A stretch of 64,000 nt of DNA. Source: Promethearchaeati archaeon (lineage in GTDB: Archaea > Asgardarchaeota > Heimdallarchaeia > Heimdallarchaeales > Heimdallarchaeaceae). The notes under the pieces are model-generated. The model worked only from the letters and a program-made list of their open reading frames with translations. It was not told where the DNA came from and searched no databases. Shown piece by piece: positions 38,548 through 39,522 of this stretch. The first letter of the stretch is position 1, and each line of letters starts with the position of its first letter. Both the position numbers and the translations under genes were made by a program. Where the stretch lies: contig JABLTJ010000009.1 of assembly GCA_013166775.1 (NCBI GenBank), forward strand, positions 1 to 64,000. The letters are read 5' to 3'.

Positions 38548-39522
38548 CTACATTGAGGTTAAGAATTTTTCCACTATTTCATCAACATTGATTTTGTTGA
38601 TTTTACAGTATTTTTCTGAGATTATAGGTGGATGATTTCCTTGGTGGACTTTTCCTCCAAAAAATATTTTCCCAAAATAGATTGGATTTATGAGGATTTT
38701 TTCAATCTTAGCAACATCAGATTTAGTCTTTTCAGCTATTTCAGCTAGACTCTTCTCCTGCAGGTAGAGTAAAGAGAACATTAGTTTGACTTTCATAGCT
38801 TCGTCGTCTTTAATCTCTAATTTACCCTTTACCAGATTATATCCGTAAGGAATGGCATCACCTGATACATCTAATGTTACTGTTAACAAACCACCATCTT
38901 TTGCAACATCTTCATGTAACTCGGGGGGATCTTCAACTTTGACAATTTCTGGTTCAGGTACTGGTTCAGGCTCCTCTTCGTCTTCTTCGGCTTCTTCAAT
39001 TTCCTCTTCGACTTCTTCGGCTTCGTCGATTTCCTCTTCGTCGGCTTCGTCGTCTTCGGCTTCGTCGATTTCCTCTTCGTCGGCTTCGTCGTCTTCGTCT
39101 TCGTCGGCTTCGTCGTCTTCATCTTCTACGACTTCTTCTACGACCTCATCAATTACTTCTTCTGAAACAGGTTCTTCTAAAACTTCGTCGACTGCTTCTT
39201 CAACAACCTCTTCGATATAATCTTCGACAACATCTTCAATGACTTCTTCTTCAGTTTCTTCTTCCTCAATCTCTTCTTCGGCTTTTTCGGCTTCTTCCTC
39301 TTCCTCTATTTCTTCATCTTCAGTTACTTCTTCCTCAATCTCTTCTTCAACTTCTTCTTCAACTTCTTCTTCCATTTTTAATTCAATTCCTTCATCAATT
39401 TTATCTTCATTTTCTTCTTTTTTAAACTTCAGAGCAGTATCTTTAGTCAAATCAGCAATTTGATCATCAAGTTTTTCTTGCAGTTTTTCCTTAAGTTTTG
39501 ATTTGATTTCATCTTCTTCCAA
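38548..39522 (-). CDS. Acidic low-complexity protein with C-terminal serine-recombinase 'recombinase' (DNA-binding) domain
   Basis: PYGY..GKLEI..EAMKVKLMF..KSLAEIA..ILINPIYFG..GNHPPIISE; ~200-aa E/D-rich N-terminus; no resolvase catalytic domain. Confidence 0.75.
   Translation of the reverse strand: MEEDEIKSKLKEKLQEKLDDQIADLTKDTALKFKKEENEDKIDEGIELKMEEEVEEEVEEEIEEEVTEDEEIEEEEEAEKAEEEIEEEETEEEVIEDVVEDYIEEVVEEAVDEVLEEPVSEEVIDEVVEEVVEDEDDEADEDEDDEADEEEIDEAEDDEADEEEIDEAEEVEEEIEEAEEDEEEPEPVPEPEIVKVEDPPELHEDVAKDGGLLTVTLDVSGDAIPYGYNLVKGKLEIKDDEAMKVKLMFSLLYLQEKSLAEIAEKTKSDVAKIEKILINPIYFGKIFFGGKVHQGNHPPIISEKYCKINKINVDEIVEKFLTSM
39019..39096. repeat. Perfect 39-bp tandem duplication in the acidic tract (EDDEADEEEIDEA x2)
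   Basis: GGCTTCGTCGATTTCCTCTTCGTCGGCTTCGTCGTCTTC at 39019-39057 and 39058-39096, with degenerate flanking units. Confidence 0.9.

Follow-up and report, generated by a model that had tools for sequence, protein, structure and literature searches.

A catalysis-free recombinase-domain protein with a long acidic tract in a Heimdallarchaeal genus: a domesticated gene and candidate dimer scaffold

The window analysed here, a 64,000-nucleotide stretch of contig JABLTJ010000009.1 from a Heimdallarchaeaceae archaeon, carries an intact minus-strand gene (324 aa, TTG start) whose C-terminal domain is confirmed to be a true recombinase domain of the large serine recombinases, i.e., a non-catalytic member of the PF07508 family. 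That is, the protein belongs to PF07508 but is not a large serine recombinase. The gene is under purifying selection and is domesticated, as opposed to a decaying integrase. As for its role, we tentatively favor, by analogy with known acidic chaperones, a scaffold role for a domesticated dimer, whose two polyanionic arms may buffer or chaperone candidate basic proteins, a reading closest to the histone-chaperone-like acidic tail that was among the ideas of a preliminary description of this DNA.

Recombinase domain and polyacidic tract

The assignment of the domain is based on both profile and fold. PF07508 matched the whole protein with 24.3 bits (residues 240-305) and its last 110 aa with 29.4 bits (the Pfam gathering threshold being 21.1 bits), and the AlphaFold model of the domain (pLDDT about 90) matched the Listeria integrase-DNA complex 4KIS with a Foldseek E-value of 1.5e-5. 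A second, independent structural aligner superimposed 107 residues on 4KIS (Z 10.0, rmsd 3.2 Å) and returned only serine integrases above Z 5, while the best solved relative of the family profile was the C-terminal domain of the Listeria integrase (E 6e-17); the likeness to the 4KIS recombinase domain includes the four-stranded sheet and the HTH-like core. Hence, the recombinase-domain pattern noticed earlier in the C-terminal ~100 aa holds, and so do the two absences reported with it. PF00239 (the resolvase catalytic domain) gave no match to the protein and the Y.R.S motif is absent from it, an E/D-rich region (55% D+E over residues 1-215) standing in place of the catalytic domain, and, since the ORF stops 19 residues past the Pfam match and the neighbouring gene is convergent, no zinc ribbon or coiled coil follows.

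Table 1. Features of the recombinase-domain gene, the structured RNA and the repeats in the window
Feature	Coordinates	Strand	Remarks
Recombinase-domain gene	38548..39522	-	Acidic tract, predicted dimer strand and recombinase domain
Mixed-charge N-terminal segment, residues 1-50	39373..39522	-	Common to the tail-less paralog, contig C75
Polyacidic tract, residues 51-198	38929..39372	-	Period-4 hydrophobic pattern
Family-specific beta-strand, residues 205-226	38845..38910	-	Conserved; predicted antiparallel swap in homodimer
Recombinase domain (PF07508), residues 224-305	38608..38853	-	Profile and fold
alphaH-equivalent recognition helix, residues 270-277	38692..38715	-	Not in predicted interface; DNA-facing positions mostly acidic family-wide
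Family-specific C-terminal helical extension, residues 306-324	38551..38607	-	
Gene's own promoter (BRE-TATA-like) and ribosome-binding site	39530..39584	-	Conserved in orthologs
Last, most decayed RNA 3' end copy	39754..39781	-	231 bp upstream of gene
RNA 3' end copy	41175..41202	-	
RNA 3' end copy	42224..42251	-	
RNA 3' end copy	44091..44118	-	
RNA 3' end copy	44939..44966	-	
Structured RNA gene, array anchor	46572..46838	-	Conserved; closed by bulge-helix-bulge motif

The product has a net charge of -103 and contains no arginine. Its acidic tract is the longest of its kind in the genome (4287 frames of at least 100 aa, 11 of which pass the same filter), and in the complete orthologs the tract measures 128-205 aa, with 54-58% D+E in all of them even though its length changes freely. 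Two points refine the ~200-aa acidic tract of the preliminary description. The first ~50 residues are a mixed-charge segment that also occurs in a tail-less paralog (score 100, equalled by 0 of 300 shuffles), while residues ~205-226 form a conserved strand outside the tract.

The ribosome-binding site of the gene is located at 39530-39536 and its TATA box at 39561-39573. Orthologs start with ATG at identical spacing to the promoter signals, and the promoter is kept to about -65 (~65 bp) across the orthologs that have upstream DNA, being variable further out. A search of the promoter for an operator palindrome returned only the AT-rich TATA region, and the family motif does not recur in the genome.

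Conserved strand and DNA-facing surfaces

The alternating hydrophobic pattern of residues 205-226 is conserved in 23 of 23 family rows, and the same residues are unstructured in monomer models (pLDDT <50), which is why a homodimer prediction was run. It scored 0.79 vs. 0.00 for the best of three controls (pLDDT 91), and repeated runs shared at least 94% of contacts; among solved structures, 20 of 30 homodimers and 1 of 23 monomers reach the mark for a homodimer, counts that are only rough here, our own alignment having been used. In the predicted interface, residues 205-226 are swapped antiparallel against the domain's sheet and alphaH is left free. Integrases have a helix at the place of the strand, and the strand is absent from the paralog as well; given this, its low confidence in the monomer and its conservation in the family, recall of a solved integrase dimer is an unlikely source of the prediction. 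The modelling thus suggests a family-specific beta-strand that replaces the minor-groove linker and forms a strand-swapped homodimer.

In the Listeria integrase, alphaE and the linker that follows it track the minor groove, alphaH reads only 3 bp of the major groove via Tyr207 and Asn208, and most of the specificity comes from the zinc ribbon (PMC3783163). The corresponding charges differ in the Heimdall family. The 14 residues ahead of the conserved GY have a net charge of -2.0 (negative in 96% of 26 rows) where other recombinase domains have +1.5 to +3.7; the alphaH region stands at -0.15 compared to +1.0 to +2.2, and the domain as a whole at -0.03 per residue compared to +0.035 to +0.068 elsewhere. 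Further, the positions matching integrase Asn208 and Asn211, an equivalence that rests on the alignment of the family profile to the Listeria integrase, are D/E in 21 of 25 rows each, vs. 0/4 paralogs and, in other sets, 0/22, 2/33 and 4/33, and 3/69 and 1/69. That is, the basic alphaE/linker and the polar base-reading alphaH of integrases are absent at the sequence level (linker net -2; D/E in 21/25), and the DNA-facing positions are charge-reversed across the family, although not in the tail-less paralog. It is important to note that the 25 rows come from one genus, so the reversal amounts to about one evolutionary event, not 25. Moreover, DNA binding may persist, since the predicted interface leaves alphaH out and the family keeps six lysines almost without change. 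The window's copy is more basic than most (alphaH +1, hairpin +2), with Ala at the Asn208 position and Glu at the Asn211 position.

Distribution, relatives and locus

Close homologs carry the label Ca. Heimdallarchaeota, and the family profile matched 19 of 399 Asgard genomes, all within 1 of 85 genera; 18 of these genomes have the acidic form and one (G014) has the tail-less paralog only. The gene is intact, with an open frame, in 18 of the 25 genomes of this genus (g1), the genomes without a match being bins only 72-86% complete, and no match was obtained in the sister genera, which include a 95% complete bin (G025) and two closed genomes. For the domain, comparison with the two closest relatives gives dN/dS values of 0.08 and 0.13, the median of 36 pairs being 0.20, and the gene tree is mostly congruent with the PAC2 and ELP3 trees, i.e., largely vertical, with G002 and G005 as exceptions. 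Because of the open frames, the low dN/dS, the conserved promoter and the largely vertical tree, the domain is domesticated, as had been supposed from the sequence earlier.

The tail-less paralog (178 aa; contig C75, L085:4257-4790) has a strongly basic recombinase domain and was found in G000, G014 and a few metagenome proteins. Paralogs and acidic form make up one group (support 99) with a long stem, and the paralogs have basic surfaces and no strand, the simplest reading being that they keep the older state. A fixed pairing of the gene with a 2-oxoacid-dehydrogenase-like neighbour was considered and rejected, the paralog's neighbour being only about 40% identical to the hot-spot one; the closest copy of the hot-spot neighbour (58-64%) is elsewhere in the same genome.

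With respect to origin, no close full-length integrase relative was found among 1.8 billion representatives, where the best resolvase-bearing match had an E-value of 7.7e-10 vs. 1e-18 or better for the family, and viral contigs provided distant recombinase-domain matches only (25-46% identity over part of the query). A split integrase was rejected, as no resolvase or zinc-ribbon ORF adjoins the gene in any locus. The source genome has two resident serine recombinases, short resolvase plus recombinase-domain genes (239 and 249 aa; L003:1489-2208 and L004:1489-2238; contigs C65 and C80) that end after the recombinase domain, with no zinc ribbon and no coiled coil. Nearly all members of the archaeal family (G000-G030) carry two such genes without zinc ribbon, one of which is in a conserved operon with a small GTPase. 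A conserved tyrosine recombinase was not found in the family (none in 16 of the 31 genomes, one closed genome included), and the short genes may do the work of XerA in resolving chromosome dimers. In a quick tree (102 columns), these resident genes group apart from the acidic family; the long stem is unplaced, so descent from them is not formally rejected by the sequences.

Catalysis-free recombinase domains are common in archaea and already known. The best matches outside the genus are such proteins of other archaea and phages, including zinc-finger-like or lone recombinase domains encoded beside tyrosine recombinases; 143 relatives, classified by a rough motif rule, included 38 multi-domain and 43 single-domain proteins without resolvase (some of the latter 43 probably being cut fragments), and the ESM Atlas lists stand-alone clusters named 'Recombinase domain-containing protein'. 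Three examples (L147:5001-6101, L230:2540-4264 and L238:5001-6401; P0012, P0010 and P0023) combine an HTH, two or three recombinase domains and a winged HTH in 350-570 aa without a catalytic domain, one of them oriented divergently from a small tyrosine-integrase element. Elsewhere in archaea, two contigs (L228:3175-4543 and L234:2171-3450), though not another one examined, have a XerA-like tyrosine recombinase gene whose 3' end is overlapped by a lone recombinase-domain gene, adjoining a ribosomal protein operon; this pair is a possible two-gene Xer accessory module. Literature searches returned nothing on the function of the other catalysis-free proteins or on the Heimdall acidic protein, and Wu et al. 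2022 (PMC8813620) does not mention recombinase or resolvase.

The backbone order of the locus is SBP, PAC2, RNA, variable region, rps30 and ELP3. The RNA that anchors the array folds at z -6.9 relative to shuffles, is conserved across three genera, where wobble and compensatory changes fit the minus strand, and has the bulge-helix-bulge motif in all 20 copies, two of which show a compensated pair; flanked by this splice signal, it is probably circular. SRP RNA and RNase P RNA were rejected as identities, both being located elsewhere in the genome, as were tRNA and any Rfam family (no match). The RNA also shows several C-rich single-stranded motifs, and its conserved loop motif GACCTCCT is similar to the anti-Shine-Dalgarno end of 16S rRNA. 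Each repeat copies the 3' arm of the RNA, in the variant that its own genome carries. Because the 3' side of the splice motif is retained in every repeat, a downstream copy could in principle be a cutting site for read-through transcripts. The arm (46580-46596 and all repeats) forms a 6-of-7 palindrome around a central 2-bp TT in 17 of 17 genus copies, whereas the sister genera, which lack arrays, have only 3-5 of 7; such a palindrome arises in 8% of shuffles for one sequence and in 33% with a free spacer. A minimal core common to the repeats at the palindrome was discounted because the repeat filter itself required that core.

The gene had been placed ~230 bp beyond the last repeat on the RNA strand, which is accurate for the window (Table 1). 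It occupies this same region, on the RNA's strand, in 12 genomes whose contig also has the RNA, a repeat or ELP3; three more genomes probably share the arrangement, and two additional metagenome assemblies show it. Every repeat is on the RNA side of the gene, which lies 94-231 bp from the last repeat or RNA in G000, G008, G010, G013 and G024; beyond the gene, no repeat was above background within 4.5 kb where sequence is present, and old copies may have decayed. The gene is not bracketed as a cassette of the array, the far-side RNA 3' end copy being absent; it is the ancestral distal flank of the array. The expectation that cassette loss would make RNA and gene neighbours is borne out by G008, where the RNA 3' end is 178 bp from the gene with no repeat between them; G023 has no repeat above background either. 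Synteny of gene and RNA holds in part: the gene keeps this place in 12-15 genomes, but in one clade (G004, G007, G017) RNA and ELP3 are contiguous and the gene is located elsewhere with promoter and tract intact (one repeat remains in G017), and in the sister genera g2 and g3 ELP3 directly follows the RNA and the gene was not found. G002 was dropped as an unlinked case because its RNA contig ends 450 bp past the RNA and its gene copy and PAC2 group with different clades. Neither repeats nor gene were found outside genus g1, the gene's promoter sits behind the RNA's T-run terminator, and no catalytic serine or tyrosine recombinase was found in any hot-spot locus. The relocated clade, together with the genera that have the RNA without the gene, indicates that neither RNA nor repeat needs an adjoining gene.

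A few other features of the region and genome were observed. A second SecY/Sec61-alpha gene (39793-41079, minus strand) lies between two repeats and is also present in G006 and G019. The same 122-132-aa cargo gene (L071, L070 and L081 vs. L074) is repeat-bracketed in G013, whereas in G023 and G024 it lies between the RNA and the recombinase-domain gene, and in G001 on the far side of the latter; since its positions differ between genomes, cargo changes sides. A methyltransferase-like frame at 37177-38013 (plus strand), read by eye, has an in-frame TAA at codon 5 (37189-37191), suggesting a pseudogene or an assembly error, and is missing from the corresponding place in G019. The source genome also has a predicted tRNA-Pyl with CUA anticodon (ARAGORN).

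Competing explanations and known systems

Under the scaffold reading that we tentatively favor, the strand would take the place of the integrase's DNA-tracking linker and be exchanged between two protein copies, and the resulting homodimer would carry two polyanionic arms of ~150-200 residues. Holding the dimer together would now be the main task of the recombinase domain, which would bind specific DNA sequences little or not at all, and the arms would bind basic nucleic-acid-binding proteins and buffer or deliver them in a nucleoplasmin/Nap1- or DNA-mimic-like manner, the candidate clients being four alpha3-truncated histones, Alba and ribosomal proteins. The gene would have arrived at the insertion hot spot in the ancestor of the genus and become fixed there, with later cassettes inserted between gene and RNA, so that the adjacency to the RNA would be historical. 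The four alpha3-truncated histone genes are on contigs C1, C7 and C37 (recovered by tblastn, the Pfam histone models having missed these short histones), the genome has two Alba genes, and Pfam models and tblastn found no canonical nucleosomal histone in it. Alpha3-truncated short histones are reported to be abundant in another member of the Heimdallarchaeia (10.64898/2026.07.02.735847). In favour of the scaffold reading are the homodimer prediction, the charge reversal, the acid content that all complete orthologs keep, the relocated clade with its intact promoter and tract, and the low dN/dS. Counting against it are the window's own copy, which is more basic than most, the free alphaH and nearly invariant lysines, the origin of all 25 rows in one genus, the search that found no canonical nucleosomal histone, and the fact that the gene is kept at the locus in 12-15 genomes.

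Alternatively, the protein might be a dimeric DNA-binding regulator or chromatin protein whose free alphaH helices bind DNA at sites unrelated to the array, the acidic arms autoinhibiting or tuning the binding as HMGB-type tails or the RNA polymerase delta subunit do. Because alphaH is free and the six lysines are nearly invariant, we give this alternative appreciable weight while considering it unlikely; the fold and helix-turn-helix core are intact, the tail-less paralog keeps its basic surface, and many archaeal proteins (the 38 multi-domain representatives) combine catalysis-free recombinase domains with HTH domains. The charge reversal at the base-reading and minor-groove positions, the lack of arginine and the negative domain charge argue against it. 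Rather improbable, in our estimation, is an accessory or regulatory factor of the array that binds the RNA 3' end repeat or a resident short serine recombinase and times cassette traffic. The position of the gene on the far side of every repeat, the restriction of repeats and gene to genus g1, the two conserved resolvase plus recombinase-domain genes of an archaeal family that has no tyrosine recombinase conserved, the repeat palindrome (a serine-recombinase geometry) and the overlapping gene pairs in the two other archaeal contigs are all consistent with such a factor. However, the gene is relocated in G004, G007 and G017 (the last retaining a repeat) and in place without a repeat in G008, no repeat is above background in G023, no hot-spot locus has a catalytic recombinase, the palindrome arises in 8% of shuffles and the repeat filter required its core, the co-occurrence at the genus level is a single event, the domain groups apart from the resident recombinases (albeit with the stem unplaced), and its DNA-facing residues are acidic. 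The coiled coil of the integrase is what known recombination directionality factors work through, and the resident enzymes have neither it nor the zinc ribbon; with no integrase in the locus either, the earlier proposal of a directionality or targeting factor is weakened. A hitherto undescribed integron-like system of Heimdall archaea, in which the RNA 3' arm would be the attachment site, a chromosomal resolvase plus recombinase-domain enzyme would act in trans and the catalysis-free dimer would gate the cassettes, is doubtful to a similar degree.

That the protein is the partner of the structured, probably circular RNA in a ribonucleoprotein is very improbable: although the two were ancestrally adjacent on the same strand and are direct neighbours in G008, genera g2 and g3 conserve the RNA but yielded no match to the gene (G025 being 95% complete), the gene has its own promoter behind the RNA's terminator, and a net charge of -103 without arginine is poor for RNA binding. 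Of the preliminary idea of a partner of the RNA or the repeats, therefore, the positional adjacency stands, while the relocated clade, the RNA without the gene and the neutral or acidic DNA-reading surfaces speak against the partnership itself. Finally, island integrases usually sit at such a place in a variable region, and the region is highly variable and the N-terminus of low complexity, which speaks for a decaying integrase remnant or an ordinary passenger cassette. This explanation is hardly credible given the open frame in 18 of 18 genomes, dN/dS of 0.08-0.20, the conserved promoter, the new conserved strand and C-terminal helices, and the far side without a repeat; decay is refuted, and the gene may at most have originated from an island integrase.

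If the scaffold reading is correct, the gene would provide a traceable case of a mobile-element enzyme part becoming a cellular protein, in which a DNA-tracking linker turned into a dimer strand, the reading helix lost its charge and an acidic arm was added, with the tail-less, still basic paralog as the likely surviving intermediate. It would also make the protein a candidate acidic chaperone of independent origin, from a lineage near the eukaryote ancestor. The reach of this view is limited to a single genus, catalysis-free recombinase domains are already common and the clients are candidates only; the neighbouring RNA and cassette array are the stranger objects, and the gene would matter far more only if it controlled them.

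Among known systems, the Listeria LI/A118 integrase (4KIS; PMC3783163) has the recombinase domain in common with the Heimdall protein by profile and fold, but the latter lacks the catalytic domain, alphaE, the zinc ribbon and the coiled coil. Where the integrase has its basic linker, the Heimdall protein has an acidic strand with a predicted part in dimerisation; its alphaH positions are acidic, and it has a long polyacidic N-terminus. The catalysis-free proteins of other archaea and phages likewise have a recombinase domain without resolvase domain, yet they keep basic DNA-facing surfaces and have neither acidic tract nor dimer strand; none of the sequences compared was found to combine an acidic arm with a dimer strand and reversed charges. 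Recombination directionality factors are similar in being small non-catalytic proteins near a (here putative) attachment site, whereas the Heimdall protein is a recombinase-domain homolog in a locus without serine or tyrosine integrase. Chaperones of the nucleoplasmin/Nap1 type and DNA mimics have an oligomeric folded core with long D/E-rich arms. There is no homology to these proteins, since the core is a recombinase domain by profile and fold as opposed to a nucleoplasmin or NAP fold, and the clients of the chaperones are histones, which are candidates only in the present host with its alpha3-truncated rather than nucleosomal histones; the likeness would be one of architecture, that is, an oligomeric core, here a predicted dimer, with acidic arms.
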